The notes: generated from the sequence alone by a model not told the origin. Positions 5,074 to 32,000 are shown, counted from the first letter of the stretch. The stretch: DNA of 32,000 nucleotides from Candidatus Nanosynbacter lyticus (GCF_000803625.1 NZ_CP007496.1:300001-332000); one strand, 5' to 3'. Translations and numbers: made by a program.

Positions 5074-5094
5074 TGGTATGATTATAGCACAATT

Positions 5095-6444: not shown

Positions 6445-7892
6445 TAAATATCCTCCAATTTAACCTCTTCGCCGCCACCCATCAATTCGGCAATTTTCGC
6501 CAGCTTTTTATCCTCTGGCGGTTTCTTCTCTCCAATTATATCAATTTCTAGCTCCATGCCTGTCTCTTCCGTGATTATCTCCGCAATTAATGGCCGATTT
6601 TTGGCGTCGTCCAGTTTCTTCTTGTAAAACGCGGTGCCGGCGTAAATTGTTAATTTTTCTCCATCAAATGCCCACTGGCTTTTTTGCAGTAAAGAAGATA
6701 GCCCAAGGGATTTTTCTTTTGCCTTTTCAACTACTTTGTCCCAATCTATTTCTAATGGAGTGTCAGTTTTCTTTGGTTTTGCAGTGGGTTTCTTCGGCGG
6801 CTCCACTGTCTTTTCCTCTTTCTCAAGAGGCTTTTCTACTGGTTTAGCTGGAGCAGTCGGTTTGGCTGGTGCTGAAATTGTAGGCTGCTTTTTAACTATG
6901 GTTTCGGCGACATTTTTCTTTGGCGTAATTGGATTTTTACTGGCCTGAGAATCGCAATTCATAAATATCGTCAATAATTTTAAGTCCGGATGCGGGTGCC
7001 GATCAACCTCAATTAACTGCTGGACTAGCTTGACCAGATTTGGGTTTTGCCGTAGTTTATTACGTGCAATTGATAGTAACTGGTGGGAAACGACTACTGA
7101 ATTGGCGCCATTATTTTCTAAATCCCTGAAGACATCTAAGATTTGCTCATTATTGCCAGTCTGGTATAAATCCAGTAATCCGTTAAGTTTTGAAGTGTCG
7201 CTTAGACCTAAATATTCGGCGACCATAGCACTGGTCAATGGTTGGTCGGGTGTTGCCAAAATTGATAATTGGTCTAGCATACTGATCCCGTCGCGAAACC
7301 CGCCGCGCGAGCGCTCAGCAATCAACCGTGCGGCGCCTTCCTCAATGCCAAAGCCCTCTTTTTCGGCAATGTTCATGAGCTGGCGTGCCATAATTTCTGT
7401 CGGGATTGGACGGAAGAAAAATTGCTGGACGCGACTGAGGATGGTGGCGGGCAGCTTGTCGGCGTCGGTGGTAGCCAAGATGAATACTACGTGCGCTGGT
7501 GGTTCCTCCAGGGTTTTTAATAGTGCGTTGAAGGCAGGCTTGGACAGCATGTGGACTTCGTCGATGATGTAGATTTTCTTCGGCGCGGAAACGGGCGCGA
7601 CTTGTGCTTTCTCGCGCAGGGCGCGGATGTCGTCGACGCCGTTGTTGCTGGCGGCGTCAATTTCGATGATGTCCAGGTGTGACACTTCCTCGTCATACGG
7701 CAGCTGATTGATCTCATGCGCCAAAATGCGCGCTACGCTGGTTTTTCCGACGCCGCGCGGACCCGTCAGCAAATACGCATGGGCGATTTTCCCCTGCTCC
7801 AAGGCTCGGCGCAAAATGTTGGTCACGTGATCTTGCCCCAACACCTCGTCCAAGCTACGACTGCGATATTTGCGGTACAGCGCCTGACTCAT
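6444..7892 (-). CDS. dnaX: DNA polymerase III subunit gamma/tau (DnaX)
   Basis: MSQALYRKYRS..., Walker A GPRGVGKTS, and DEVHML. It has a Lys/Pro-rich linker and a tau-like C-terminus. The first ATG is at 7892; the ORF track extends to a TTG at 7916. Confidence 0.9.
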   Translation of the reverse strand: MSQALYRKYRSRSLDEVLGQDHVTNILRRALEQGKIAHAYLLTGPRGVGKTSVARILAHEINQLPYDEEVSHLDIIEIDAASNNGVDDIRALREKAQVAPVSAPKKIYIIDEVHMLSKPAFNALLKTLEEPPAHVVFILATTDADKLPATILSRVQQFFFRPIPTEIMARQLMNIAEKEGFGIEEGAARLIAERSRGGFRDGISMLDQLSILATPDQPLTSAMVAEYLGLSDTSKLNGLLDLYQTGNNEQILDVFRDLENNGANSVVVSHQLLSIARNKLRQNPNLVKLVQQLIEVDRHPHPDLKLLTIFMNCDSQASKNPITPKKNVAETIVKKQPTISAPAKPTAPAKPVEKPLEKEEKTVEPPKKPTAKPKKTDTPLEIDWDKVVEKAKEKSLGLSSLLQKSQWAFDGEKLTIYAGTAFYKKKLDDAKNRPLIAEIITEETGMELEIDIIGEKKPPEDKKLAKIAELMGGGEEVKLEDI

Positions 7893-20219: not shown

Positions 20220-20296
20220 TGGCAGGAGTGGAGGGACTCGAACCCCCGACACCTGGTTTTGGAGACCAGTGCTCTAGCCACCTGAGCTACACTCCT
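20220..20296 (-). tRNA. tRNA-Trp (anticodon CCA), CCA end encoded
   Basis: Hand-folded cloverleaf of 77 nt. Acceptor AGGAGTG/CACTCCT, D arm GCTC/GAGC, anticodon stem CTGGT/ACCAG with loop CTCCAAA, and T loop TTCGAGT. Confidence 0.9.
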
Positions 20297-20412
20297 ATGA
20301 CGTTCATTTTATCATGAATTGCCCTTCTGGCAAATGTTAAAATTGTGAAAAATAAATATTTCGTGAAAAAAAATACCAAAATCTCTTGAAAAAACATAAA
20401 CGTCGTCCTACA

Positions 20413-21627
20413 ATGAAAACAGAGATGAAAATTTTAATGCTTGGGTGGGAACTTCCTCCGCACAACAGTGGCGGACTTGGCGTTGCCTGCTATCAGATGT
20501 CGAAAGCGCTCGTTTCAGAGGGTGTTGATATTGACTTTATTATTCCCTATACCGCCAAGCATCCCGAGATTGACTATATGGATGTATATTCAGCCACTCC
20601 TTTGCCGCCGAATTATCACGATTTGGGTGCATATAATAACGGCTCAGAGGAAGACCGTGAAAATGCCAAGGATGAATACGGTCTTTCCCCTATGCGCGCT
20701 GTGCAGAGGCGTTACGGTAAATACGTTCGGAAGTTTGTGAAAAATCATCAGCCTGACGCGATTCACGCACATGATTGGTTAACGATGGAAGCTGGAATAA
20801 TTGCTAAGGAGATGACTGGTGCGCCGCTAATTGTGCATGTTCACGCGACGGAATTTGACCGTTCTGGCGAGCAGTCCGGAAATCCTCTGGTTCACGAAAT
20901 TGAGCAACAAGGACTATTGATGGCGGATCGGATAATTGCCGTAAGCGAGATCACGAAAGAAATAATTGTTAAGAATTATCACATTCCGCCAGAGAAAATT
21001 GAGGTGGTTTATAACGCGATTGATTTGGCTGATTTGCCACCTCATGAATATGATGCCAGTACTTACAGGTATTTGGAGGAGTTGAAGGAGGATGGTTATA
21101 CGGTTGTTGGCGCGTTGACGCGACTCACGGTTCAGAAAGGTTTGACGTATTTTGTGCGAGCTGCAGCGAAGGCGCTTGATAAATATGAGAAAATCGTTTT
21201 TGTTTTATCTGGAAATGGTGAACAGAGAGATGAGTTGATTGAACTGGCGGCAGATTTAGGGATTAGCGATAAGATGATTTTTACAGGATTTGTGCGCGGA
21301 AAACAGTGGCGAGATATTTACTGTTTGATTGATGTTTTTGTGATGAGTTCGGTTTCTGAGCCATTTGGTTTGACTGCCTTGGAAGCAGCACATCATGACA
21401 CGGCGTTACTTATTAGTCGTCAATCCGGCGTCGGCGAGGTTCTGAATAATATTATGCGGTTTGATTATTGGGATGTAAATAAATTGGCGGATGAAATTGT
21501 TAATGTCGCTGAATCGCCTGCCTTACAGAAATCTCTGAAGAAAAACGTTAAGAATGAATACGCGAGAATTTCCTGGCAAGATGCCGCTAGAAAATGTCTG
21601 AAACTGTATAAAGGAGCGCTGGCATGA
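20413..21627 (+). CDS. Glycosyltransferase, GT4/GT5 glycogen-synthase-like
   Basis: KILMLGWELPPHNSGGLGVAC at the N-terminus and a C-terminal GT-B signature (SVSEPFGLTALEAA). The start is ambiguous: ATG at 20413 or 20425, with the track using a TTG at 20386. Confidence 0.8.
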   Translation: MKTEMKILMLGWELPPHNSGGLGVACYQMSKALVSEGVDIDFIIPYTAKHPEIDYMDVYSATPLPPNYHDLGAYNNGSEEDRENAKDEYGLSPMRAVQRRYGKYVRKFVKNHQPDAIHAHDWLTMEAGIIAKEMTGAPLIVHVHATEFDRSGEQSGNPLVHEIEQQGLLMADRIIAVSEITKEIIVKNYHIPPEKIEVVYNAIDLADLPPHEYDASTYRYLEELKEDGYTVVGALTRLTVQKGLTYFVRAAAKALDKYEKIVFVLSGNGEQRDELIELAADLGISDKMIFTGFVRGKQWRDIYCLIDVFVMSSVSEPFGLTALEAAHHDTALLISRQSGVGEVLNNIMRFDYWDVNKLADEIVNVAESPALQKSLKKNVKNEYARISWQDAARKCLKLYKGALA

Positions 21628-22826
21628 ATAAAAATAAAGGAATAGTTTTATATCTACACGTACACCAACCGTGGCGAATACGCGAGTATAGTATATTTGA
21701 CGTGGCTTGGAAGTATAACTATTTCTCTGGCGGTCAAAATCCAGATCAGGACAATCAAAAAATATTCCAAAAAGTTGCAGAAAAGTCGTATTTGCCGATG
21801 AATGCTTTGCTTGAAAAGTTGCTGAAAAAATATCCTGATTTTAAGATCTCGTTGAGTTTTAGTGGAACGTTTTTAGAGCAAGCCGAAAGGTTTAATCCTG
21901 AGGTTTTGGAAAGTTTTAAGCGCTTAGTAAAGACTGGTCAAGTAGAAATATTATCAAGTCCGTATCATCACAGTCTGGCGTTTTTCTATTCGCGCAAGGA
22001 ATTCGAGCGTCAAGTTGAGCTTCATCGCTGGAAGATTCGCGAGATTTTTGGTGCGGAAACACGAGTTTTAGCAAATACAGAGTTGGCGTATAGTGATGAC
22101 TTGGCGAAATGGGCTGAGCAGGATGGCTTTAAGGGTGTGTTGGCTGAAGGCTGGGATCCGATTCTGAATTGGCGCAGTCCGAATTATGTATATCGCCCGA
22201 GAGGCACGAAGAAAATTGGATTGCTACTTAAGAATTATCGATTGAGCGATGATTTGGCGTTTAGGTTTAGCGATCGAAAATGGAATGAATGGCCGCTGAC
22301 TGCGGATAAGTTTAATACGTGGGTGGAAGATTCTGTCCGTTACGCGCCACTGCTTAACTTGTTCATGGACTATGAAACTTTCGGCGAACATCAATGGGCG
22401 GAATCTGGGATTTTCGGCTTCTTTGAGAAGTTTGTTGATAAATGGCTGAGTGCTGATGGCAATACTTTCTATACCGTTAGCGAGGCACTGGATGCGAATG
22501 CGCCTGCCGGTGAAATAAGTATGCCGTCGCCTGTAACGTGGGCGGACGCTGAGCGGGATTTGACGGCTTGGAATGGAAACAGCCTGCAGAAAGAAGCTTT
22601 GCGATATGTCTATGAGCTCGAAGATGAGGTCTTGAATAGTAAAGACGAAGGTCTAATTAGCGATTGGCGAAAATTGCAAACTTCAGACCACTTCTATTAC
22701 ATGGGAACGAAGAATTTTACCGACGGCGATGTCCACGCTTATTTTAGTCCGTATGATTCGCCATACGACGCTTTTCTTTACTATATGAATACTATTCGTG
22801 ATATGAAATCTCGATTGAGGAAATAG
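21624..22826 (+). CDS. Glycoside hydrolase family 57 protein (alpha-glucan-active)
   Basis: GH57 conserved regions are present: LHVHQPWR, GQVEILSSPYHHSL, NTELAYS and MDYETFGEHQW. There is an ATGA overlap with the upstream GT gene. Confidence 0.8.
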   Translation: MNKNKGIVLYLHVHQPWRIREYSIFDVAWKYNYFSGGQNPDQDNQKIFQKVAEKSYLPMNALLEKLLKKYPDFKISLSFSGTFLEQAERFNPEVLESFKRLVKTGQVEILSSPYHHSLAFFYSRKEFERQVELHRWKIREIFGAETRVLANTELAYSDDLAKWAEQDGFKGVLAEGWDPILNWRSPNYVYRPRGTKKIGLLLKNYRLSDDLAFRFSDRKWNEWPLTADKFNTWVEDSVRYAPLLNLFMDYETFGEHQWAESGIFGFFEKFVDKWLSADGNTFYTVSEALDANAPAGEISMPSPVTWADAERDLTAWNGNSLQKEALRYVYELEDEVLNSKDEGLISDWRKLQTSDHFYYMGTKNFTDGDVHAYFSPYDSPYDAFLYYMNTIRDMKSRLRK

Positions 22827-22845
22827 TCAGACATTCTTGCTAAAT

Positions 22846-22876
22846 AAAAACTCCCTCTGAATGCGAGGGAGTTTCT
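22846..22876. terminator. Bidirectional terminator between the GH57 gene and rpmG
   Basis: AAACTCCCTC (22848-22857) pairs with GAGGGAGTTT (22865-22874). Confidence 0.75.
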
Positions 22877-22892
22877 GTATGATCCTGTTAAA

Positions 22893-23111
22893 TTAGCTTT
22901 TACGAGCTTTAACTTCGTTACGACCGAGGTTCTTCTTTGTCTCAGTATAGGTCGCGTGCTGCCTTGCAATTGGGTCATACTTCTTCAGTGTTAATTTTCC
23001 CTGACCTTTAGTGGTGCGGTTTTGGGTATTAACGGTAGTATAGTAAGTTCGGTGGTTGCTCAAGTTACTCACCAAACCAATCAGCTTTCGTTTCGTATTC
23101 TTCTTTGCCAT
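22893..23111 (-). CDS. rpmG: 50S ribosomal protein L33 (Cys-less form with a C-terminal extension)
   Basis: 72 aa: MAKKNTKRKLIGLVS...YYTTVN...KLTLKKYDP..RQHATYTETK. It has no zinc-binding Cys residues and about 14 extra basic residues at the C-terminus. Confidence 0.85.
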   Translation of the reverse strand: MAKKNTKRKLIGLVSNLSNHRTYYTTVNTQNRTTKGQGKLTLKKYDPIARQHATYTETKKNLGRNEVKARKS

Positions 23112-23158
23112 CTCTTTACTCGTTAGATTTTATAAAACGTCTTGGCTAATTATAGCAT

Positions 23159-23713
23159 GTGTGGAGTAAAAATGCTAGTACCATATCAGATTTTACTAAT
23201 TTTTATGCTTACTTCGCTAATCACCTAGTCAAGTATCAACCCGCGTACTTTATCGATTCTCTGTTCTATCGATCGTTTCGTCACAGTTCCCTCCTAACTT
23301 TGTTAAGACTGCGTTTTGGTAAAACTCTCTCTTCTTACGACTTTGCGAAAAAATTCAATGCTAAGAATGTTTTGATAGTTACTAATCACCCAGTAATTGC
23401 CAATTCATGGTTTGATGATTTTGAAAAGTTTATTGACGGGTATTATTTTATTTCGACGGCAGATTTTTTAAAAGAACGCGAAACTTTGTCTAGGGACGAA
23501 TTCCTTAATAAAGCTAATTCATCAAGTGAAGATGGGCAAACCTTCTTAAGTTTGCAGGATCTAAAAGGAGGTAGGGCTCTTGGCGGACCACACAATAAAT
23601 TAAAGTGGGCGGCGGATCTGAACTGAGATTTGTTGATTATAGATGAGTCTGGTAAGATGATCGAATTGGACGCAGAGAAAGTTTTGACTTATCATCACGA
23701 AGGAGGATGTTAA
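23159..23713 (+). pseudogene. Decayed SNF2/DEAD-like helicase gene fragment
   Basis: Motif I is degenerate (LRFGKTL) and motif Ia is NVLIVTNHPVIANSWFDDFEKF. An in-frame TGA at 23624-23626 splits ...KWAADLN*DLLIIDESG (DExx motif II). The frame ends 28 codons later, with no motifs III-VI. Confidence 0.65.
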
Positions 23714-23796
23714 CCGCTTTTGCGATAAGAAATAGCGAAAGTACGGTATACTTATAGTAAAGATATTTATAAGTTAATTTGCGGAAGGAAAATAAC

Positions 23797-26346
23797 GTGG
23801 CACAAAAGGAAGCTAAAGCGCGACTAAAGATAAATATGCTACTTTCTGATGCCGGGTGGAGATTGTTGGATAACGAAGACGGTCCCGCTAATGTCGATGT
23901 AGAAAACAAAGTAGATATCGAAAACCTGGGCGATGATTTTGAAAATACGAGACGAGGGTTTGTCGATTACCTTCTTCTAGGCTCTAACCAGAAGCCCATT
24001 GCCGTCCTTGAAGCTAAGCGTGAAAGCATTCCTCCGCTTTCCGCTAAAGAACAAGCTCGCGATTATGCCAATTCTCTACACTTAAGGTATGTAATTCTTA
24101 GTAACGGCAACACGCATTATCTGTGGGATATGCAATTTGGTAACCCCGAGCCAATTAGTAGCTTTCCGACTCTAAGCTCATTAGAAGATGAAAAGAAATG
24201 GGTTTCCGATGTTGATGCGCTTGTAAACGAGAATATTTCTCGAACCTATATCGCCGAATCTCAAATGCCTGAAATTAAAACGCATCCCGATTATATAAAC
24301 GAAGATACTCGTAGTGAATTTATAGAGAAAAATAAACTGAAAATCCTTCGCAAGTATCAGGTAAATGCGATTAAGGCCGTTCAAAAATCGGCGCAAAACG
24401 GCAATAAACGCTTCCTGCTCGAGATGGCGACTGGCACCGGAAAAACTTTAACTTGCGCTGCTATTATCAAACTATTTCTAAAGACAGGAAACGCTCAGAG
24501 AATCCTCTTTTTGGTTGACCGCATTGAATTAGAAAATCAGGCCAAGAAGTCTTTTAGGCAGTCCATCGGTAAAGATTACGTGGTTAAGGTGTGGAAGGAA
24601 GATAGAGATAACTGGAAGACTGCCGATATCGTTATTAGTACGGTCCAATCTCTTTTGGCGAGTAGTCGCTATCGTGATTTTAGTCCGAATGACTTTAATT
24701 TAATTATCTCAGATGAGGCGCATCGTTCTATTGGCGGCAACGCGAGAGCTGTTTTCGAATATTTCACTGGGTACAAGATTGGGCTTACCGCCACACCGAA
24801 GGATTTTTTAAAGAATACCAAGCAAGATGAAAATTCAGAAAAAGAATTCGAACGCAGAGAGTTATTGGATACCTATAGGACTTTTGGGTGCGAATCTGGT
24901 CAACCGACTTTTAGATATGACCTAAAAGATGGCGTAAACGATCCTGATGGTCCGTTTTTGGTGAATCCCGTCATCCTGGATGCTAGGACGAATATTACCT
25001 CACGACTGCTCGCAGATGAAGGCTATGCAGTCCATAAAATTATTGATGGCGAAGATGTTGACGAGAATTTTGGTATCAGAGATTTCGAGAAAACATTTTT
25101 CAATGAAGAGACCAATCGCGTGTTCTGTGAGACTTTTATGAAATACGCGGCGGTCGATCCGTTATCTAAAGAAATTGGTAAAACCATCATCTTTACTGTT
25201 AGCCAAAAACACGCAGAAAAAATAGTCCAAATGCTTAACCAAATTGCTATGGAAAAGTTCCCTGGTAAGTATAATTCTGATTTCGCTATTCAGATTACGA
25301 GTAATGTTCGTGACGCTCAACAGCTCTCGATTAGTTTTTCTGAAAATAATCTGCGCGGACATACAAGGTGGCTTTCGGATTACGAAAGTAGTCGCACTAG
25401 AGTCGCCGTCACGGTCGGCATGATGACGACCGGTTACGATTGCTCCGATTTATTAAATCTCGTGTTCATGCGTCCAGTGTTTAGCCCTTCTGACTTTATT
25501 CAGATGAAAGGTCGAGGTACGCGACTCCATACGTTCAAATATGTAGATTATGAAAATGGCGAGAAAGTTAAAACTATTAAGAAAGAAAACTTCCGTATTA
25601 TAGACTTTTTCGCAGTTTGCGAATACTTCGAAGAAAAATACGACTATAATGCGCCGTTGGTAGTGCCAATGAGTAGGCAAACGCAAAACACTTTAGTGAC
25701 GCCGCTGCTTATCGATGTCGATCCTCCCGTGATCGTGGTAAACCGTACGGTAGACCTGAATGAGAATGATTCCCTGAGTGGAATAGATGAGACGATTGTT
25801 GGTAAAGAAGGCATGCGCGTTGATCGCGAGATGTTCCGCAGCTTCCAAGATGAGGTGAAATCTAATGAAGAATTCGTCAAGTTGTATAATAATGGCAATA
25901 TTGATGGGGCGCTAAGCTATCTTAAATCCGAAATACTCGGCGAAGATAAGCCTAAGTTCTATATGACTCCTGAGAAAATTCGCAAAATCTTCAATCTAGA
26001 CCGCAGGCTAGACCTTCGTGAGATTCTGGATCTAATCATGAACAATAAAGAGCCATTGACTAAAGCTCAATATATCCAGCAAAAGTTTAATGAACTTATT
26101 TCGGATAAAGGGCTGAGTGAAACTTTGGTTGGAGAGTTGTACAACGATGCATTTGAATTATTTGATGCGTATATCACTGATCGACGCGTGTCTGAGGCTA
26201 TAGATAATAGAGATTATAGTCTACTGGCTGGATTCGGCTCTATTACAATCGAACAGCTCAAACGCCTAGGTATCGAAAGAGTAAATCAGATTATTAGCTA
26301 TATTAGAGATTATATTAATGTAGAAAAACTAAGAGTAAAGGATTAA
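23797..26346 (+). CDS. hsdR: Type I restriction enzyme R subunit (HsdR)
   Basis: The N-terminal nuclease domain has EAKARLKINMLLSDAGW and a PD-(D/E)xK-like VDY...LEAKRE. Helicase motifs are LEMATGTGKTLT, IISDEAHRS and GLTATP...QMKGRGTR. A GTG start at 23797 follows GGAAGGA; the track starts at a TTG at 23779. Confidence 0.9.
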   Translation: MAQKEAKARLKINMLLSDAGWRLLDNEDGPANVDVENKVDIENLGDDFENTRRGFVDYLLLGSNQKPIAVLEAKRESIPPLSAKEQARDYANSLHLRYVILSNGNTHYLWDMQFGNPEPISSFPTLSSLEDEKKWVSDVDALVNENISRTYIAESQMPEIKTHPDYINEDTRSEFIEKNKLKILRKYQVNAIKAVQKSAQNGNKRFLLEMATGTGKTLTCAAIIKLFLKTGNAQRILFLVDRIELENQAKKSFRQSIGKDYVVKVWKEDRDNWKTADIVISTVQSLLASSRYRDFSPNDFNLIISDEAHRSIGGNARAVFEYFTGYKIGLTATPKDFLKNTKQDENSEKEFERRELLDTYRTFGCESGQPTFRYDLKDGVNDPDGPFLVNPVILDARTNITSRLLADEGYAVHKIIDGEDVDENFGIRDFEKTFFNEETNRVFCETFMKYAAVDPLSKEIGKTIIFTVSQKHAEKIVQMLNQIAMEKFPGKYNSDFAIQITSNVRDAQQLSISFSENNLRGHTRWLSDYESSRTRVAVTVGMMTTGYDCSDLLNLVFMRPVFSPSDFIQMKGRGTRLHTFKYVDYENGEKVKTIKKENFRIIDFFAVCEYFEEKYDYNAPLVVPMSRQTQNTLVTPLLIDVDPPVIVVNRTVDLNENDSLSGIDETIVGKEGMRVDREMFRSFQDEVKSNEEFVKLYNNGNIDGALSYLKSEILGEDKPKFYMTPEKIRKIFNLDRRLDLREILDLIMNNKEPLTKAQYIQQKFNELISDKGLSETLVGELYNDAFELFDAYITDRRVSEAIDNRDYSLLAGFGSITIEQLKRLGIERVNQIISYIRDYINVEKLRVKD

Positions 26347-26349
26347 TGA

Positions 26350-27798
26350 ATGGACTATACCCAATTTAAACAAATAATAGATAATTCCCGCGATATTCTC
26401 ATGGGTAAATTACCAAGTCCAATCGCCCAGGTGGATGCAATTTCTTATGCACTTATTTATAAGTTCATGTCGGATACTGATGACGATTCTGCTGCACTTG
26501 GCGGCAAACGTACATATTTTTCTGGTGAATATGAAAAATATAGTTGGCACAATTTGATGAGCCCAACTACTACTGGTGCTGATCGCGTAATTCTTTATCG
26601 CAATGCCCTCGAGAATATGAGCCGCAATCCAAACATTCCTCCACTATTCCGTGAGATTTTTAATGGTGCGACACTTGGATTTACCGACTCAAATACACTT
26701 AACTTATTTCTTCGCGAAATCGATAAGATTAAGCAGAGTTCTGGCGACTCCATCGGTGACGTTTATGAATACCTTCTCTCCACTATGGGATCTCAAGATA
26801 AGCTTGGTCAGTTCCGAACACCTCGCCATATCATTGATATGATGGTTGAGCTTATTGATCCAGACAAATCTGATAAAATTCTAGACCCTGCTTGTGGCAC
26901 CGCAGGTTTCCTTATCTCTGCGTATAGCTGGATTAAGAAGAAGCACATTGAAAAAGAACGTTTGAATAGTGAGGATATTGAGAAAATTCATCGCAACTTC
27001 TACGGTTTTGATATCGAACCAAACATGGCTCGTATCGCTCGTGTAAACTTGTTCCTGCATGGCTTTAAATCCCCTCATATTATTGAGCATGATACGCTCA
27101 GCTCAGAAGATTACTGGGATGACCGTTATGATGTGATTCTTGCGAATCCGCCATTCATGACGCCAAAAGGCGGTATCACCCCGCATAAGAAGTTTGGGAT
27201 TACTTCAAAACGTGCTGAGCTTCTGTTTGTTGATTATATCGCTTCTCATTTGAAGCCGAATGGTCGCGCAGCTGTAATTGTGCCTGATGGTGTTCTGTTC
27301 CGCAGTAGCTCTGCACACAAAGCACTCAGGAAAGAAATTGTCGAAAATAAGAAGCTTCAAGCTGTTATTTCGATGCCTTCGGGCGTATTTAAGCCATATG
27401 CTGGTGTTTCTACGGCGATTTTAGTATTTACTAACTCAAGTAATGAAAGAACCGACAAGGTTTGGTTTTACGACATGAAAATAGATGGATATAGTCTTGA
27501 TGACAAGCGCTCAAAGCTCAAAACAAGTGACGTCCCCGATATTCTTGCAAGGTTTAAAAACCTTGATGGTGAGAAAGATCGTAAACGCAACGAGCAATCA
27601 TTCTTTGTGGATAAAGATGAGATAGTCAAAAACGGCTATGACCTAACGATCAACAAATATAAGGAAGTCGAATACGAGAAAGTTGAATACCCACCAACTT
27701 CTGAAATTATAGCTGAGATTAAGAAATTAGATCGTGAAGCTTCCGAAAGTCTGACCGAACTTGAAAAATTATTAAACGAAACAAATCCGGATTTGTAG
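26350..27798 (+). CDS. hsdM: Type I R-M N6-adenine DNA methyltransferase subunit (HsdM)
   Basis: 482 aa. The SAM-binding motif is ILDPACGTAGFLI and the catalytic motif is LANPPFMTP. It starts 3 nt after the hsdR stop. Confidence 0.93.
   Translation: MDYTQFKQIIDNSRDILMGKLPSPIAQVDAISYALIYKFMSDTDDDSAALGGKRTYFSGEYEKYSWHNLMSPTTTGADRVILYRNALENMSRNPNIPPLFREIFNGATLGFTDSNTLNLFLREIDKIKQSSGDSIGDVYEYLLSTMGSQDKLGQFRTPRHIIDMMVELIDPDKSDKILDPACGTAGFLISAYSWIKKKHIEKERLNSEDIEKIHRNFYGFDIEPNMARIARVNLFLHGFKSPHIIEHDTLSSEDYWDDRYDVILANPPFMTPKGGITPHKKFGITSKRAELLFVDYIASHLKPNGRAAVIVPDGVLFRSSSAHKALRKEIVENKKLQAVISMPSGVFKPYAGVSTAILVFTNSSNERTDKVWFYDMKIDGYSLDDKRSKLKTSDVPDILARFKNLDGEKDRKRNEQSFFVDKDEIVKNGYDLTINKYKEVEYEKVEYPPTSEIIAEIKKLDREASESLTELEKLLNETNPDL
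27629..27798 (+). repeat. Outer inverted repeat, left arm (last 56 codons plus stop of hsdM)
   Basis: This 170-bp arm is identical to the reverse complement of 30974-31143, compared base by base. The flanking bases on both sides mismatch. Confidence 0.95.
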
Positions 27799-27805
27799 AT
27801 ATATC

Positions 27806-28825
27806 ATGAAAGTTAAACTTGGAGAGCTAACGAAGATTAGAACCGGCAAATTGGACGCCAATGCGGCTTCTGATGATGGCACGTATCCATTCTTTACATG
27901 TTCGAAAGAGCCGTTGCGAATATCTACATATTCATATGATTGCGAGTGTGTACTAGTTGCGGGAAATGGCGATCTAAATGTCAAATATTACAACGGAAAA
28001 TTTGACGCATATCAACGAACGTACATTGTCGAATCTAACGGCGACGGAAGACTTCATCTTCCATACCTCTATCATTTTATGACGCGGTATATTCAGGAAT
28101 TAAGAAAACTATCGATTGGCGGAGTTATTAAATATATTAAACTAGGCAATCTTACTGATGCGGAAATATCGCTTCCCGATATTAAAGAACAAAAAACCGC
28201 ATGCAAAAAACTTGAGAAAATTAAAAACATTATAGATAAAAAAGAATCGCAACTTTTTTACCTAGATAATCTTATCAAAGCCCGATTTGTCGAGATGTTT
28301 GATGATAACTTTGGCGAAATCGTTGAACTCGGAAATGTCTGTGATGTACGCGACGGTACTCATGATTCACCAAAGTATCACAATGCAGGCTATCCGCTCG
28401 TAACATCAAAAAATATATGCGATGGGAAAATAGATTTTTCGACCTGTAATTTAATCCAGAAAGAAGATTATGTCAAGATTAATAAAAGATCCAAGGTCGA
28501 TGTCGGTGATGTTTTAATGCCTATGATTGGCACTGTTGGCAATCCTATTATTGTAAATACCGACAAGGAATTCGCCATCAAAAATGTAGCACTAATTAAA
28601 TTTAAAGACGATTCCGTAATTCTTAATACGTTCATAAAAACATTGCTTGAGTCAGATTATTTTGGCAGGGCCGTACTCAGTAAAACAAAAGGTGGGACGC
28701 AGAAATTCATTTCACTTGGCGATATTAGAAAATTGGAGTTTAATTTACCGCCAATCGAACTACAACACCGATTTGCCACCTTTGTCGCCCAAATCGACAA
28801 ATCAAAATTTGCCGCTAAGCAATGA
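27806..28825 (+). CDS. hsdS: Type I R-M specificity subunit HsdS, allele 1 (expression position; distal conserved helix truncated)
   Basis: 339 aa. It has a unique TRD1, a central conserved helix (LPDIKEQK...LIKARFVEMF), and a TRD2 identical to allele 2. It ends ...IDKSKFAAKQ*, lacking about 21 aa that allele 2 has. It starts 7 nt after the hsdM stop. Confidence 0.9.
   Translation: MKVKLGELTKIRTGKLDANAASDDGTYPFFTCSKEPLRISTYSYDCECVLVAGNGDLNVKYYNGKFDAYQRTYIVESNGDGRLHLPYLYHFMTRYIQELRKLSIGGVIKYIKLGNLTDAEISLPDIKEQKTACKKLEKIKNIIDKKESQLFYLDNLIKARFVEMFDDNFGEIVELGNVCDVRDGTHDSPKYHNAGYPLVTSKNICDGKIDFSTCNLIQKEDYVKINKRSKVDVGDVLMPMIGTVGNPIIVNTDKEFAIKNVALIKFKDDSVILNTFIKTLLESDYFGRAVLSKTKGGTQKFISLGDIRKLEFNLPPIELQHRFATFVAQIDKSKFAAKQ
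28274..28812 (+). repeat. Inner inverted repeat, left arm (TRD2 plus flanking conserved-region codons of hsdS-1)
   Basis: This 539-bp arm matches the reverse complement of 29903-30441. The encoded protein is identical over about 180 aa, and the DNA matched at all segments checked by eye. Confidence 0.9.
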
Positions 28826-29783
28826 ACTTGCGATGTGCAACTTTTACGTTCGTTTGATTAACTATAGCATAACGCATAGTCGTATCGATCTGAGAATGTC
28901 CGAGTAGCTTCTGAACTTGTTCAATAGGCATCCCTTTATCAATTGCACGTGTTGCCATAGTCCGGCGGAACTTATGCGGATGAACCTTATTTATGCCTAA
29001 TTCGCGCCCTAAGCGTCTCAGGCGGATTTCTACGCCAGATATCTGTAATCTATTGTAAGGCGCATCAAGTGTCACAAAAAGGGCAGGATTTGTGTCAAAG
29101 CGGCTATTTATGTAGCTCATTAGGTGTATTTTAGTTTTTGCGTCGAAATATACGCGTCTTTCTTTATCGCCCTTACCGAAAACAATGCATTCGCGTTCTT
29201 CGAAATCTATATCGTCGATATTAAGTCGCACGAGTTCGCCAATTCTTATTCCAGTAGAATAAAGTAGATCAATTATCGCTAAGTCGCGTAAATTTTTACA
29301 TTTATCTCGCATCTTTTCAATTTCCTCATCGGAAATAACCTCTTTCACGGTTTTCGTAGTTTTAATTTTGTGGATGCGCCGCATTGGGCTTTTGATGATA
29401 TAATCTTCCTCTTCGAGCCATGTAAAGAAGCTTGAGATATTGCGACGGATATTATCAATAGTTGTTTTACTGCAATCATTTAAACCTTGATAGTTAGCCA
29501 AATATTCACGTATATCGTCGGTAGTTACTTTACGTATTGGATCATCTACTTCATCTAGTAGTTTCTCTACAGTAGTCTTGTAATAGGCCAATGTCCGTTC
29601 AGAGCATCCTTCTATCTTTTTAGCATTCAAAAACATCGACAAATAATTGTCGTTTGAAATGCCATTTATAGATCTCGTTTCTTTTGTAAGGCGCGAAACG
29701 AGCACGCGCTGTAATTTTTGTGACTGATTTGCGGTGAGATATTCGTCCATATCCACCAAAATGTATTTAATGGCGTCTTCCAT
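28815..29783 (-). CDS. Tyrosine site-specific recombinase (XerC/D-integrase family), predicted hsdS invertase
   Basis: 322 aa. The catalytic set is TGIRIGEL (Arg), HPHKFRRT (H-x-x-R) and LLGHSQIDTTMRY (His/Tyr). An AAAGGAG RBS is present. Its 3' end overlaps the hsdS-1 stop by 11 nt on the opposite strand. Confidence 0.9.
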   Translation of the reverse strand: MEDAIKYILVDMDEYLTANQSQKLQRVLVSRLTKETRSINGISNDNYLSMFLNAKKIEGCSERTLAYYKTTVEKLLDEVDDPIRKVTTDDIREYLANYQGLNDCSKTTIDNIRRNISSFFTWLEEEDYIIKSPMRRIHKIKTTKTVKEVISDEEIEKMRDKCKNLRDLAIIDLLYSTGIRIGELVRLNIDDIDFEERECIVFGKGDKERRVYFDAKTKIHLMSYINSRFDTNPALFVTLDAPYNRLQISGVEIRLRRLGRELGINKVHPHKFRRTMATRAIDKGMPIEQVQKLLGHSQIDTTMRYAIVNQTNVKVAHRKFIA

Positions 29784-29835
29784 TAATAACTCCTTTCGTT
29801 AGATTGGCACCTCCACTAACAAAAGGAATAACTTT

Positions 29836-30966
29836 TTAGCCAAAATACTCCTGCATTAAACTATCAAATAGAAGTTGCGTTTTTTCTAGCGACTTTTGTA
29901 CAGCAAATTTTGATTTGTCGATTTGGGCGACAAAGGTGGCAAATCGGTGTTGTAGTTCGATTGGCGGTAAATTAAACTCCAATTTTCTAATATCGCCAAG
30001 TGAAATGAATTTCTGCGTCCCACCTTTTGTTTTACTGAGTACGGCCCTGCCAAAATAATCTGACTCAAGCAATGTTTTTATGAACGTATTAAGAATTACG
30101 GAATCGTCTTTAAATTTAATTAGTGCTACATTTTTGATGGCGAATTCCTTGTCGGTATTTACAATAATAGGATTGCCAACAGTGCCAATCATAGGCATTA
30201 AAACATCACCGACATCGACCTTGGATCTTTTATTAATCTTGACATAATCTTCTTTCTGGATTAAATTACAGGTCGAAAAATCTATTTTCCCATCGCATAT
30301 ATTTTTTGATGTTACGAGCGGATAGCCTGCATTGTGATACTTTGGTGAATCATGAGTACCGTCGCGTACATCACAGACATTTCCGAGTTCAACGATTTCG
30401 CCAAAGTTATCATCAAACATCTCGACAAATCGGGCTTTGATGAGCTCATCTAATGCTTCGATCTTTTTCTTGTCGTGTGTAATTATCTCGGAGATAACAT
30501 CAAGTGTTCTAACGATTTTGTTTTGCTTTTCTACGGATTCGCATATGCTAATTTTGAAGTCGCTAAATTGCGTTTTATTAATAATCGGAACGACCGGCGC
30601 GTTCGCTATAGCCTTCAGTTGTTTTCGATTGGCATAGATGGCATATGCCAAGTATTTTGGAATAATTGCTTCATTCGGAACGATAGCATTTATCTGTTGA
30701 TTAAACGAGACTTCTTCTTCCGTTATGCCGACTCGTCCTATTTTCCCAATACACGTGACAAGTATACTATTTGCTGGTACTATTCTAGAAACGTTTTTGG
30801 CGCTGGCGGAGATATACTCATTTGCACTAGATATGACACATAATTCGTCTTTTATCACATCCGGTTTAATAAACTTGATGTTTCTATTACTCCAATATTC
30901 GTCGACCTTTTTGCTCGGAGTATTTCCCGTAAATATCGTACCCAATTCTTTCAGTCTTACCTTCAT
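29836..30966 (-). CDS. hsdS: Type I R-M specificity subunit HsdS, allele 2 (silent/inverted position; full-length distal helix)
   Basis: 376 aa. It has a different TRD1 and the same TRD2 as allele 1. The distal conserved region is complete (LPPIELQHRFATFVAQIDKSKFAVQKSLEKTQLLFDSLMQEYFG). Confidence 0.9.
   Translation of the reverse strand: MKVRLKELGTIFTGNTPSKKVDEYWSNRNIKFIKPDVIKDELCVISSANEYISASAKNVSRIVPANSILVTCIGKIGRVGITEEEVSFNQQINAIVPNEAIIPKYLAYAIYANRKQLKAIANAPVVPIINKTQFSDFKISICESVEKQNKIVRTLDVISEIITHDKKKIEALDELIKARFVEMFDDNFGEIVELGNVCDVRDGTHDSPKYHNAGYPLVTSKNICDGKIDFSTCNLIQKEDYVKINKRSKVDVGDVLMPMIGTVGNPIIVNTDKEFAIKNVALIKFKDDSVILNTFIKTLLESDYFGRAVLSKTKGGTQKFISLGDIRKLEFNLPPIELQHRFATFVAQIDKSKFAVQKSLEKTQLLFDSLMQEYFG
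29903..30441 (-). repeat. Inner inverted repeat, right arm
   Basis: It is the reverse complement of 28274-28812. Confidence 0.9.
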
Positions 30967-30973
30967 ATCGTAC

Positions 30974-31143
30974 CTACAAATCCGGATTTGTTTCGTTTAA
31001 TAATTTTTCAAGTTCGGTCAGACTTTCGGAAGCTTCACGATCTAATTTCTTAATCTCAGCTATAATTTCAGAAGTTGGTGGGTATTCAACTTTCTCGTAT
31101 TCGACTTCCTTATATTTGTTGATCGTTAGGTCATAGCCGTTTT
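30974..31143 (-). repeat. Outer inverted repeat, right arm: silent copy of the hsdM 3' end
   Basis: It is the reverse complement of 27629-27798. An in-frame TAA lies immediately upstream of the copy, so it is not an expressed gene fragment by itself. Confidence 0.95.
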
Positions 31144-31431
31144 AAGGCAGTAGAATAGGCGCCAATCTCACCGAATAATTCTAAAAACTTTCGTACATTC
31201 CCCTAAAAGAGGTACTCGGCAGTATAAGCCGGAGTAGATATAGTAAAAAGTTATTTTCAAGTCTTCGTAAGAATCCTTTCGGTTAAAATTATTATTCTTT
31301 GTACTGGTGGGCCACCACTCTGAATTTAATGCACTAAGAAAAGACTTGTATATCGGGTTTCCTAGGACGATTCTCGTATGAGCAAAAGAAGGCTCGCAAT
31401 CTTTCGATCACGAGCCTTAAATATCTTATTG

Positions 31432-31507
31432 TGGAGCCACGATCGGGGCTTGAACCCGAGACCTCATCCTTACCATGGATGCGCTCTACCAACTGAGCTA
31501 TCGCGGC
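31432..31507 (-). tRNA. tRNA-Thr (anticodon GGU), CCA end encoded
   Basis: Hand-folded cloverleaf of 76 nt. Acceptor GCCGCGA/TCGTGGC, anticodon stem CATCC/GGATG with loop ATGGTAA, and T arm TCGGG-TTCAAGC-CCCGA. Confidence 0.9.
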
Positions 31508-31554
31508 GTAACAGGCTTAATTTTAGCACATTAAGCCGTGTTTAATCAACTGAG

Positions 31555-31860
31555 TCATTTTTTACGAGTGGATTTCTTGGTTGGCGTACCGACTTCTTTT
31601 GGTAGTTTCGGCGTGACAAACGCTTCTATTATTCCCCACGCTATGCTATTGACCAAGAAAGTAACGAACAATATTCCTGAAGCTGATGCCGCCAAGTGCG
31701 CCGATGAGGCGTTAAATAATGTCAATAATCCCGCCGCAGTTAGCCCAATTATAGCCAGCATAATATAAGCGTATTGTAATTTCAATCGTTGGTTTTTTTC
31801 GCTATTCCATAATGTAAGAATAGATTTTGTAAATTCAAACATATCCATATAATAGCACAT
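31555..31860 (-). CDS. Small two-TM membrane protein with a Lys-rich tail (hypothetical)
   Basis: Two hydrophobic helices (YAYIMLAIIGLTAAGLLTLF and ILFVTFLVNSIAWGIIEAFV). The start is uncertain: ATGs at 31860, 31848 and 31842. The track's TTG at 31899 overlaps the tRNA-Tyr terminator. Confidence 0.5.
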   Translation of the reverse strand: MCYYMDMFEFTKSILTLWNSEKNQRLKLQYAYIMLAIIGLTAAGLLTLFNASSAHLAASASGILFVTFLVNSIAWGIIEAFVTPKLPKEVGTPTKKSTRKK

Positions 31861-31897
31861 ATGCTTATAAAAGTCAATATTACTACTTTGCGCTATC

Positions 31898-31921
31898 AAA
31901 AAGTCGCCCCAAAAAGGCGAC
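31898..31921 (-). terminator. Terminator after tRNA-Tyr
   Basis: On the minus strand, GTCGCC, loop TTTTTGG and GGCGAC are followed by TTTTT. Confidence 0.6.
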
Positions 31922-31934
31922 GATGATTCAAATT

Positions 31935-32000
31935 TGGTGCTGGAAGTAGGACTCGAACCTACGAAGCCTTACGGCGGGAGATTTACAGTCTCCTGTGATT
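31935..32000 (-). tRNA. tRNA-Tyr (anticodon GUA), partial: the 5' end lies beyond the window
   Basis: Anticodon stem GGAGA/TCTCC with loop CTGTAAA, a long variable arm, T arm GTAGG-TTCGAGT-CCTAC, and a 3' end of TTCCAGC-A-CCA. Confidence 0.8.

Follow-up and report, generated by a model that had tools for sequence, protein, structure and literature searches.

Gene content and layout of the locus

[quoted passage not shown] A sequence-only reading had named five genes in it, hsdR, hsdM, hsdS-1, a tyrosine recombinase gene, and hsdS-2, and Pfam and NCBIfam models bear out all five (Table 1). An NCBIfam model for EcoAI-family R subunits also matches the hsdR product, with a score under its cut-off. 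In the public annotation, hsdR has a later start and encodes 849 aa. The exact HsdM protein is present on 8 public contigs. The two hsdS products equal TM7x entries AJA06442.1 (hsdS-1) and AJA06444.1 (hsdS-2), in line with the earlier suggestion of a CPR/Saccharibacteria-type host. AJA06444.1 is wrongly named “tRNA isopentenyltransferase” in the TM7x annotation.

hsdR and hsdM form a single operon that reads into an expression slot beginning 7 nt past the hsdM stop. The second complete hsdS lies inverted in a silent slot. No promoter for it was detectable, a tRNA gene and a terminator-like hairpin are found in the upstream sequence, and an in-frame stop directly precedes the hsdM fragment in the right arm of the outer repeat.

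Table 1. Features of the hsd locus, positioned by window coordinates
Feature	Position	Strand	Description
hsdR	23779-26346	+	Restriction/translocase subunit; Pfam ResIII (E = 3e-41), HSDR_N_2, Helicase_C
hsdM	26350-27798	+	m6A methyltransferase subunit; Pfam N6_Mtase (E = 5e-69)
Outer inverted repeat, left arm O	27629-27798	.	Last 170 nt of hsdM including TAG stop
O core ACAAATCCGGATTTGTAG	27781-27798	.	Holds 16-bp perfect palindrome overlapping hsdM stop codon
hsdS-1	27806-28825	+	Expression slot; 339 aa; TRD1a, central helix, TRD2x, short tail AAKQ-stop; Pfam Methylase_S
M core ATCAAAGCCCGATTTGTCGAGATGTTT	28274-28300	.	~27 bp; encodes IKARFVEMF of central conserved helix
TRD2 module “x”, copy 1	28301-28793	+	Identical to hsdS-2 copy
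D core TCGACAAATCAAAATTTGC	28794-28812	.	19 bp; encodes (V/I)DKSKFA of C-terminal helix
Innermost invertible segment	28813-29902	.	Short-tail codons, recombinase gene, 52-nt leader, canonical 21-residue tail codons
Tyrosine recombinase	28815-29783	-	322 aa; putative hsdS invertase; Pfam Phage_integrase (E = 8e-36)
Recombinase-leader RNA hairpin	29789-29829	-	Predicted; anti-SD (UUCCUUUU) pairs with SD AAAGGAG (29790-29796)
hsdS-2	29836-30966	-	Silent slot; 376 aa; TRD1b, central helix, TRD2x, full canonical tail; Pfam Methylase_S (E = 4e-33)
D' core	29903-29921	.	Partner of D
M' core	30415-30441	.	Partner of M
Outer inverted repeat, right arm O'	30974-31143	.	Promoterless copy of last 170 nt of hsdM; core at 30974-30991
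Terminator-like hairpin	31389-31418	-	13 pairs then T run; downstream of tRNA-Thr, upstream of silent slot
tRNA-Thr(GGT)	31432-31507	-	Upstream of silent slot

Two long repeats contain three short sites

Both inverted repeats reported earlier are exact. The arms of the outer pair match at 170 of 170 bases when one is reverse-complemented, and those of the inner pair (28274-28812 and 29903-30441) at 539 of 539. Repeats of these lengths are too long for a chance origin. The outer one extends to 191 nt at 96% identity, taking in the first 14 nt of both hsdS genes, and the inner one to 550 nt with 3 mismatches. In the related genomes L023, L026, and L027, the outer repeat is reduced to 18-19 bp, the O core alone, and one O variant among related Saccharibacteria keeps the palindrome (ACAAATTCGAATTTGT). 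Judging from these sequences, what matters for recombination in the 170-bp repeat is probably a palindrome of 16 bp at the hsdM stop, ACAAATCCGGATTTGT. Simulated inversion of the outer segment placed the hsdS-2 ATG 7 nt past the hsdM stop and left HsdM unchanged, as had been predicted.

The inner pair, previously taken as one site, stands as a real exact repeat but resolves into two short sites, M and D, flanking a duplicated TRD2. The M core marks the limit of identity between contigs carrying TRD1a/1b and TRD2x/y and is conserved as a 25-34-bp inverted repeat in L023-L027. The D core, which runs opposite to O and M inside the same gene, marks the limit between the x/y modules and two alternative tails and is conserved as an 18-32-bp inverted repeat in L022-L027. 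Module “x” is replaced by an unrelated module “y” in L010, L011, L013, L015, L017, L018, L020, and L102-L106, and “y” sits on oral-metagenome contigs whose recombinase is identical to that of TM7x. In closely related strains, TRD2 differs between the two hsdS genes. Because TRD2x occupies both TM7x genes, M, x, and D merge there to form the 539-bp repeat, and the number of specificities falls to two.

The tails differ as well: hsdS-1 ends in KSKFAAKQ and hsdS-2 in KSKFAVQKSLEKTQLLFDSLMQEYFG. In simulation, the inner inversion swaps them (an 18-residue helix end vs AKQ), an effect the sequence-only reading overlooked, and the canonical tail is invariably on the 5' side of the recombinase gene. 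All four simulated states keep both hsdS genes in frame (339/376, 357/358, 376/339, and 358/357 aa). The earlier expectation of four states therefore holds for the DNA but not for specificity: just two combinations of TRDs arise, and in either one the C-terminal helix may be full or truncated. As read from the sequence, the inner inversion would alter no specificity and would instead flip the recombinase gene and exchange the HsdS tail. That both alleles share TRD2 was confirmed, the copies being identical, and the two predicted specificities should accordingly share one half-site.

The motif CAAA-N4-GATTTGT is common to the O, M, and D cores and is restricted to their six sites within the 32-kb window. 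A search with CAAANNNNGATTTGT returned 8 matches in the 32 kb, all at these six sites, against 0.04 expected, and the pattern was found again in the hsdS genes of relatives. All six cores are intact and identical within each pair. Where related Saccharibacteria carry unrelated TRDs, no inverted repeats are left except the O, M, and D cores. The central bases differ among the three cores, and we therefore propose that each pairs with its own partner alone.

The recombinase and its leader

On the NCBIfam model NF040815 (recomb_XerA_Arch), the recombinase reaches 260 bits, above the cut-off of 220, and it falls far under the cut-offs of the equivalog models for XerC and XerD. Among solved structures, XerA and XerD are the closest to it. 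The earlier reading had named a catalytically dead recombinase as evidence against switching. This did not materialize: R180, the lysine of GKGDKER, H270-x-x-R273, H296, and Y305 align with XerA 4A8E, so that, by alignment, the protein keeps all catalytic residues. Two collections each yielded more than 570 relatives. Neighbors were mapped for 80 loci of the genome collection, spread over Saccharibacteria, Firmicutes, and Akkermansia, and in most of these the recombinase gene lies between or beside hsdS genes. Most Firmicutes relatives are arranged hsdM-hsdS-rec-hsdS-hsdR with both hsdS genes co-directional, and the TM7x recombinase is 64-72% identical to the Firmicutes copies.

The predicted leader hairpin (MFE -20 kcal/mol, z = -3.4) begins just 6 nt past the hsdS stop codon. 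Its stem is retained in 8 Saccharibacteria, with small covariation, and distant relatives have an analogous helix over the start codon. No promoter-like site was found in the ~50-nt leader.

Alternative configurations in public assemblies

The alternative junctions predicted from the window exist in public assemblies, here examined as assemblies rather than reads. The 705,178-bp assembly CP040011.1 (“TM7 oral taxon 952”), apparently of the same strain, is 100% identical to the window over 20350-28812 and 29903-32000, with 28813-29902 inverted. However, orientation of this 1,090-bp segment between 539-bp perfect inverted repeats is beyond short reads, so an arbitrary assembly choice could account for the discrepancy between the two TM7x genomes. 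Module maps of 29 contigs contain all four TRD1-TRD2 and all four TRD2-tail junctions, between modules that are 100% identical, and because these junctions cross just 19-38 bp of shared sequence, single reads span them. Moreover, 7 of the 8 predicted HsdS proteins (TRD1 a/b by TRD2 x/y by short/full tail) occur verbatim in public data.

At the outer site, the right flank is joined through O to TRD1a in three samples (L102, L103, and L105) and to TRD1b in the window, L001, and L020. hsdM is joined through O to TRD1b in L018, and TRD1a occupies the silent slot of L111. The expression slot holds TRD1a in both TM7x assemblies, and the metagenome collection, scanned for hsdM-unique sequence followed by 177 nt and TRD1b, gave no match. 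Contigs spanning the 170-bp outer repeat were assembled with k<=141 or at low coverage and are possibly chimeric. The configurations constitute evidence between assemblies and between samples, not within-clone reads, and long repeats could mislead assemblers.

A probable reduced hsdS shufflon and its alternatives

Taken together, the repeats, the intact catalytic residues, and the junctions in assemblies support the original claim of a recombinase-associated invertible hsdS system. We consider it highly likely that the locus as a whole is best explained as a reduced hsdS shufflon, in which the recombinase inverts DNA at O, M, and D and TM7x retains two specificities. Under this model, the XerA/C/D-like recombinase encoded between the hsdS genes would recombine the three pairs of short inverted cores. 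Recombination at O, where hsdM stops and hsdS begins, would exchange whole hsdS genes and hence TRD1a for TRD1b; at M, in the central helix, it would exchange TRD2 modules; and at D, in the C-terminal helix, it would flip the recombinase cassette alone. At the species level, two TRD1 and two TRD2 modules would give four predicted specificities. Methylation motifs would be expected to differ between the hsdS alleles; the literature searched contained no methylome of TM7x.

Could the locus instead be a frozen relic, whose repeats record past shuffling or gene conversion, with no meaningful inversion at present and an assembly difference that is an orientation artefact? The 539-bp repeat is unresolvable by short reads, no record of the sequencing technology was found for either assembly, and both show the same TRD1 in the expression slot. 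TM7x has also lost its TRD2 diversity, and the hsdS genes are fragmented in the sister genome L025. We nevertheless judge a relic very improbable. The recombinase reading frame, its catalytic residues, and the six pairwise identical cores are all intact, and among near-identical strains (modules 100%, flanks 99.7-100% identical) all M and D junctions occur, as do both arrangements at O. The absence of any mismatch across 170 and 539 bp also points to ongoing exchange or a very recent origin.

Repeats this long are good substrates for homologous recombination, however, and inversions in TM7x might be real but mainly RecA-type, leaving the recombinase dispensable or with another role. The whole 170-bp hsdM fragment is 100% identical outside the core, which suggests homogenization by homologous exchange, and other invertons are reported to invert independently of the locus invertase (Huang et al. 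2020, PMC7672463). Still, relatives keep an inversion-competent architecture with cores of 16-34 bp, too short for efficient RecA recombination. The recombinase-type motif shared by the three cores and absent elsewhere in the window, together with the tight linkage between the recombinase gene and pairs of hsdS genes that most of the 80 mapped loci show across several phyla, makes the RecA-type route improbable as the main one. The same linkage bears on the idea that the protein is a housekeeping Xer, a chromosome-dimer resolvase adjoining hsdS by coincidence. The XerA-type model, its best curated family match, and the XerA and XerD structures fit that idea. Such an enzyme would be expected to use a single dif site in a context unrelated to the targets; here, six candidate sites lie in or adjoining hsdS, with no dif-like context. 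Moreover, with its identity to Firmicutes copies the gene looks more like a mobile accessory of R-M systems than like a core gene inherited vertically, and we give coincidence almost no weight.

Possible consequences of the innermost inversion

In TM7x, an M or D inversion would bring the canonical 21-residue tail, together with the recombinase gene, into the operon or remove both from it. The HsdS in the window's expression slot is shortened by ~18 residues at the end of its coiled-coil helix, and the recombinase gene is antisense to the operon. This state would therefore be one of low recombinase, and it may be R-M-impaired. A less probable extension, which we consider doubtful, is that the D inversion is a built-in “lock” rather than a by-product. 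The recombinase gene follows the canonical tail, its leader is without a promoter-like site, and its ribosome-binding site is hidden by the hairpin; on the lock reading, recombinase synthesis would therefore require that the expression slot contain a full-tail hsdS and that this gene be transcribed and translated. If so, a cassette flip would shut off the recombinase and freeze the current specificity, and the same flip would truncate the HsdS coiled coil, possibly turning restriction and methylation off. The result, in a CPR episymbiont that is naturally competent and exposed to phages, would be a self-limiting switch in which R-M ON/OFF is tied to the capacity for switching.

Relation to known invertible systems

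The locus has five of the six features by which Huang et al. (2020) define an invertase-positive epigenetic inverton; the sixth, a distinct methylation motif for each hsdS allele, is predicted here. Alongside hsdR and hsdM it carries two hsdS genes, the minimum for the class; inverted repeats in or flanking hsdS bound the invertible segments; an invertase homologue with an intact catalytic tyrosine is locus-encoded; and the inversion products retain both hsdS reading frames. Alternative configurations are observed between assemblies (CP040011.1, 7 of 8 HsdS variants, and all junction types). The class is already known, and Saccharibacteria examples were already counted in the 2020 survey: two loci, without description, assigned to clade 2 (PMC7672463), a placement that comes solely from the survey table for those two loci and not from the TM7x recombinase sequence.

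The Efa4125I/EfaH25I inverton of Enterococcus faecalis (PMC7672463) resembles the TM7x locus in its gene order (hsdR-hsdM-hsdSA-efiA-hsdSB), in its two inverted, full-length, two-TRD hsdS genes with a tyrosine invertase between them, and in its short repeats at the 5' end and in the central conserved region. Swapping one or both TRDs there yields four hsdSA alleles (Huang et al. 2020, PMC7672463). By contrast, the TM7x system has a third pair, D, which would flip the invertase gene and swap the HsdS tail; 170 nt of hsdM are included in its outer repeat; and its two TRD2s are identical. The invertases also differ in clade, EfiA belonging to clade 4 and the survey's two Saccharibacteria loci to clade 2.

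SpnD39III/cod of Streptococcus pneumoniae (CreX/PsrA; Manso 2014, Li 2016) likewise combines an expressed hsdS with silent partners, inversions at several inverted-repeat pairs of unequal length, and a locus-encoded tyrosine recombinase, and the outcome there is a phase-variable methylome. Its silent genes are truncated, without 5' ends, and give six alleles, whereas both TM7x genes are complete; its recombinase is of clade 1, differing from the TM7x locus, and no tail or invertase flip is described for it. Rearrangements at clade-2 loci often give truncated HsdS and hence ON/OFF switching (Huang et al. 2020, PMC7672463). In these TvrR-type loci, including SpnIV/tvr (Kwun 2018; Huang 2020), such switching resembles the TM7x tail truncation, although tvr works by excision and reintegration at direct repeats and the TM7x sites are inverted. 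The R64 shufflon (Rci, sfx sites) also pairs one tyrosine recombinase with several short sites that have a common core and vary outside it, and its nested inversions change a protein C-terminus. Its target is the pilus adhesin PilV rather than HsdS, Rci belongs to an unrelated recombinase subfamily, and the rci gene, unlike the TM7x recombinase gene, lies outside the invertible segments.

Locus architecture and simulated inversions

The Type I restriction-modification locus with nested inverted repeats is real, and the sequence-only reading of it was essentially right. Both inverted-repeat pairs described there proved identical by repeat search and base-by-base comparison: the outer pair (27629-27798 and 30974-31143) matches at 170/170 positions and extends to 191 nt at 96%, and the inner pair (28274-28812 and 29903-30441) matches at 539/539 and extends to 550 nt with 3 mismatches. 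The calls of hsdR, hsdM, two hsdS genes, and a tyrosine recombinase are each backed by Pfam and NCBIfam. Simulating the outer inversion reproduced the proposal that the hsdS-2 ATG would land 7 nt after the hsdM stop with HsdM unaltered. The prediction of four states stood at the level of DNA, with both hsdS frames open in 4/4 simulated states and expressed HsdS proteins of 339, 357, 376, and 358 aa, but these amount to only two specificities, as both genes carry the same second target-recognition module (TRD2 x). Simulated inversion of the inner segment (28813-29902) swaps the hsdS tails and flips the recombinase gene, an effect absent from the earlier reading.

Coordinates of the genes and putative core recombination sites of the locus
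Feature	Position	Strand	Basis
hsdR	23779-26346	+	ORF; Pfam/NCBIfam
hsdM	26350-27798	+	ORF; Pfam/NCBIfam
hsdS-1	27806-28825	+	339 aa; Pfam/NCBIfam
Tyrosine recombinase	28815-29783	-	322 aa; Pfam/NCBIfam
hsdS-2	29836-30966	-	376 aa; Pfam/NCBIfam
O core	27781-27798 and 30974-30991		Window
M core	28274-28300 and 30415-30441		Window
D core	28794-28812 and 29903-29921		Window

Some sources label the hsdS-2 product (AJA06444.1 / WP_039327329.1) a "tRNA isopentenyltransferase"; by Pfam it is a Type I S subunit. Between rpmG and hsdR lies a 155-aa ORF (23159-23626, +) that has no Pfam match and is kept in the genome CP040011.1 and several metagenome contigs.

Three short core sites

In related Saccharibacteria, whose recombinases are 81-98% identical, the TRDs are unrelated, and the sole inverted repeats remaining at the locus are three short cores, which we located with a seed-and-extend self-comparison script. 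The O core, ACAAATCCGGATTTGTAG(A), is a 16-bp perfect palindrome over the hsdM stop. The M core, (A)TCAAAGCCCGATTTGTCGAGATGT(TT), codes for IKARFVEMF of the central HsdS helix, and the D core, GTCGACAAATCAAAATTTGC, for VDKSKFA of the C-terminal helix. All three share CAAA-N4-GATTTGT and differ in their central bases (TCCG, GCCC, and TTTT, respectively). This motif occurs at exactly six sites in the 32-kb window (8 matches, with palindromes counted twice, against 0.04 expected), and it is also found in hsdS genes beside recombinase homologues of other phyla. Such cores have the layout that would be expected of a tyrosine recombinase with pair-specific overlap regions. For Treponema denticola, Huang et al. 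(PMC7672463) likewise describe two inverted repeats with overlap in a common sequence.

The longer repeats of TM7x can be read in terms of these cores. Because TRD2 x is present twice, M, TRD2 x, and D are fused into the 539-bp inner repeat, while in the 170-bp outer repeat the O core is joined to a promoterless duplicate of the 3' end of hsdM. This copy occurs only in TM7x and its closest relatives, and in L025 (Minimicrobia vallesae) the copies have diverged outside the core.

Some related Saccharibacteria carry a third hsdS, head-to-head with the second, with one palindromic O site serving both (L023, 7040-7069; L026, 6928-6947). The shared site in L023 is a 30-bp perfect palindrome, TACCTCTACAAATCCGGATTTGTAGAGGTA, and the L026 variant of the O core, ACAAATTCGAATTTGTAG, is palindromic too. 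Loci of this type have additional M and D sites, making a larger shufflon than that of TM7x. In L027, a Saccharibacteria MAG, an hsdS-recombinase cassette lies between two O sites (3806-5984), and hsdM continues directly into the recombinase antisense as a 543-aa ORF, an apparent O-inverted state in which hsdM is not immediately followed by an hsdS.

Evidence for switching in public assemblies

All three inversion types are evidenced in public assemblies. The two HsdS proteins of the window match AJA06442.1 and AJA06444.1 exactly, both encoded on the 705,138-bp chromosome of Candidatus Nanosynbacter lyticus TM7x, and the exact window HsdM also occurs in CP040011.1 ("TM7 phylum sp. oral taxon 952," 705,178 bp). 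That genome matches the window at 100% across 20350-28812 and 29903-32000, with 28813-29902 reversed, and at the inverted segment it encodes a 357-aa HsdS (+), the recombinase (+), and a 358-aa HsdS (-). Two deposited, apparently same-strain genomes differ by exactly the predicted inner inversion, which is suggestive rather than proof; short reads cannot orient a 1,090-bp segment between 539-bp perfect repeats, and we read the difference accordingly.

Evidence independent of the long repeats came from a second, unrelated TRD2 module (y), found on oral metagenome and sequencing-run contigs with an identical recombinase, where it replaces one or both copies of x. We listed the module combinations predicted from two TRD1 modules (a and b), two TRD2 modules, and two tails, and looked up each verbatim in public data, an approach that is cheap and reusable. 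Seven of the eight predicted HsdS proteins were present; the sole combination absent from the public collections in this verbatim look-up was 1b-y with the full tail. Mapping modules on 29 contigs recovered 4/4 TRD1|TRD2 junctions and 4/4 TRD2|tail junctions, with the joined modules 100% identical. The sequence shared at these junctions spans only 27-38 bp at M and 19 bp at D, so a single read can cross a whole junction, and chimeric assembly is not a concern here.

Longer repeats complicate the outer inversion. The unique right flank is joined through the outer repeat to TRD1a in three samples and two assemblers (L102, L103, L105), and to TRD1b in the window, CP040011.1, and L020, though contigs assembled at k<=141 across a 170-bp repeat are possible chimeras. 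TRD1b also lies 7 nt after hsdM in L018, a 110-kb contig of a more distant strain, and TRD1a occupies the silent slot (the inverted second hsdS) of another strain, L111, at 99.8% identity. The exact HsdM was found on 8 contigs representing seven loci (L001-L007), of which four, from independent assemblies (L003, L004, L006, L007), stop exactly at 27798, where the hsdM stop codon coincides with the inner edge of the outer repeat. These breaks are consistent with a branching assembly graph but are not proof of heterogeneity. A search for the outer-inverted junction (an hsdM-unique 19-mer, N177, and the TRD1b start) returned 0 matches in the metagenome collection, a negative that carries no weight given exact matching and limited oral sampling. 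The exact 376-aa hsdS-2 product was absent from the contig index; the same protein was present in the cluster collection. Overall, the outer inversion is well supported at the species level and unproven in TM7x itself.

Effects of each inversion on HsdS

In TM7x, the O inversion would exchange TRD1a-x and TRD1b-x, predicting two bipartite m6A motifs with one common half-site. In an x/x genome, an M inversion cannot be told apart from a D inversion, and specificity stays the same after both. What moves between the expressed and silent hsdS in either case is the recombinase gene and, with it, the canonical tail, AVQKSLEKTQ(L/Q)LFDSLMQEYFG. The TM7x locus is a reduced, two-specificity version of this system.

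The recombinase gene always follows the canonical tail, and the partner tail arises where the hsdS frame runs on into the antisense of the 3' end of that gene. In four relatives (L022, L023, L024, L026), this partner tail runs to ~30 residues ("ALSNELAMCNFYVRLI..."). A 1-nt insertion between the D core and the recombinase stop (window 28810-28817; TTTGCCGCTAAG vs TTTGCGCTAAG) cuts it to AKQ-stop in TM7x, L018, and L025. Accordingly, hsdS-1 ends in ...DKSKFAAKQ-stop and hsdS-2 in ...DKSKFAVQKSLEKTQLLFDSLMQEYFG-stop. The spacing of TRDs is set by the coiled coil of the central and C-terminal HsdS helices. In solved S subunits, some 41-45 residues make up the helix that follows the LPP motif, and ~23 are retained in the truncated HsdS. 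Truncation may thus impair the enzyme; truncated HsdS can be active in other systems. In the window, L005, L018, and L110, it is the short-tailed hsdS that fills the expression slot, which begins 7 nt after the hsdM stop; this is therefore a commonly occupied state.

The recombinase and its expression

The sequence-only reading had named a catalytically dead recombinase as grounds for abandoning the switch. By sequence the enzyme is not dead: R180, the lysine of GKGDKER, H270-x-x-R273, H296, and Y305 are all conserved. It is XerA/XerC/XerD-like (NF040815, 260 bits against a cut-off of 220), with XerA (4A8E and 5HXY) and XerD (1A0P) as its nearest structures, and could on that account be taken for a housekeeping Xer. 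Its genomic setting argues against this role. Each of two collections yielded more than 570 relatives, and after a handful of Saccharibacteria the next best are 64-72% identical and come from Lachnospiraceae, Roseburia, Akkermansia, and others. In most of the 80 genome-collection loci with mapped neighbors, the gene lies between or beside hsdS genes, usually in the order hsdM-hsdS-rec-hsdS-hsdR with the hsdS genes co-directional.

The silent slot appears insulated from transcription. On its own strand, tRNA-Thr(GGT) (31432-31507, -) and then a terminator-like hairpin of 13 pairs (31389-31418) come before it. The stretch of that strand from the hairpin to the silent gene yielded no promoter-like site, and the hsdM fragment has an in-frame stop immediately ahead of it.

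The recombinase leader likewise yielded no promoter-like site on its own strand. It contains a hairpin (29789-29829; -20 kcal/mol, z = -3.4) in which an anti-SD pairs with the SD AAAGGAG, and the stem is retained in eight Saccharibacteria with little covariation, which suggests translational control. For distant relatives, we searched for analogous helices ending at the recombinase start codon, with shuffled upstream sequence as the control. One of 8 bp or longer was present in 96 of 124 distinct leaders, compared with 10/124 in the control, and the 96 helices comprised 81 different arm pairs. Folding the aligned Firmicutes leaders (MAFFT, RNAalifold) recovered no structure. The leader hairpin of these distant relatives is a candidate translational control element. 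In these loci, which lie outside the close Saccharibacteria (L029-L101, L113-L189), it is located within ~50 nt upstream of the recombinase ATG, with the consensus GGATGTTGGTAT...ATACCAACATGG.

The hsdS stop codon lies 6 nt before the leader hairpin. Conceivably, the recombinase is both co-transcribed and translationally coupled with the full-tail hsdS and made mainly while this hsdS occupies the expression slot, leaving the window in a low-recombinase, "locked" state, but we consider this unlikely.

Comparison with known systems and significance

Invertible hsdS loci with a locus-encoded invertase are well described, as in S. pneumoniae SpnD39III, M. pulmonis, B. fragilis, E. faecalis, and T. 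denticola. The TM7x locus is a previously undescribed example of this class in a high-profile organism. To it we add the three-core site model, the reduction to two specificities, and an inner inversion that toggles the HsdS tail and recombinase orientation. Huang et al. 2020 (PMC7672463) catalogue 827 such loci from REBASE and place two "Candidatus Saccharibacteria" loci in invertase clade 2 without describing them; these may well be the two TM7x records. Among characterized systems, E. faecalis Efa4125I is the closest in architecture: its gene order is hsdR-hsdM-hsdSA-efiA-hsdSB, its repeats lie at the 5' end and centrally, and it has four alleles (PMC7672463). The same authors remark that clade-2 rearrangements often produce truncated HsdS and hence ON/OFF switching, which the TM7x tail truncation fits. 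Our literature search turned up no publication that deals with methylation in TM7x or with phase variation at this locus, and neither TM7 nor Saccharibacteria is mentioned in the Atack 2020 supplements.

With a genome of ~705 kb, each system that TM7x retains likely earns its place. TM7x is the reference organism of the Candidate Phyla Radiation, and Saccharibacteria are naturally competent. If the locus switches, the restriction barrier would be altered, bearing on current attempts at genetic manipulation, and methylome-based heterogeneity (a phasevarion) could arise in an obligate episymbiont. A phage targeting TM7x was reportedly described in 2026, and switching could affect how TM7x handles phage. 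The deposited TM7x genomes already differ here, with a truncated HsdS in the expressed position of the original reference, and this difference is relevant to interpreting methylation or transformation efficiency.

Possible module exchange and genomic setting

Inversion cannot alter module copy number. The x/x arrangement of TM7x could have arisen if two chromosomes that differed in inversion state underwent a homologous crossover in the recombinase cassette, giving one x/x and one y/y product. The y/y arrangement is seen on contig L017, a possible chimera of a mixed population. Modules 100% identical to those of TM7x occur in strains whose hsdR-hsdM are 6-12% divergent (L018, L111), which suggests that TRD modules are exchanged horizontally between strains. 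Across L018, L111, and L104, TRD modules are 98.5-100% identical to the TM7x type, and hsdR-hsdM, recombinase, or flanks only 83-95%; L104 has a further hsdS of 384 aa with new TRDs.

We rejected L025 (Candidatus Minimicrobia vallesae IHU2, NZ_CP076459.1) as independent support for x/x, given its mosaic TRD2s, x-like patch of ~92 bp, and frameshifts. Over 4112-7053, both of its hsdS genes are split into several short ORFs, and each TRD2 carries a ~92-102-bp patch of TM7x x, making a 75-bp inverted repeat. These patches could reflect a gene-conversion tract, pseudogenization, or sequencing error.

At the hsdR end, a tRNA-Trp(CCA) gene (20220-20296, -) precedes the locus by ~3 kb, and tRNA-Thr(GGT) adjoins the silent slot at the other end. 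G+C in the hsdS/recombinase region is 37.6-39.6%, compared with 41-48% in most of the window. The flanking tRNAs and lower G+C are compatible with acquisition of the locus as an island.
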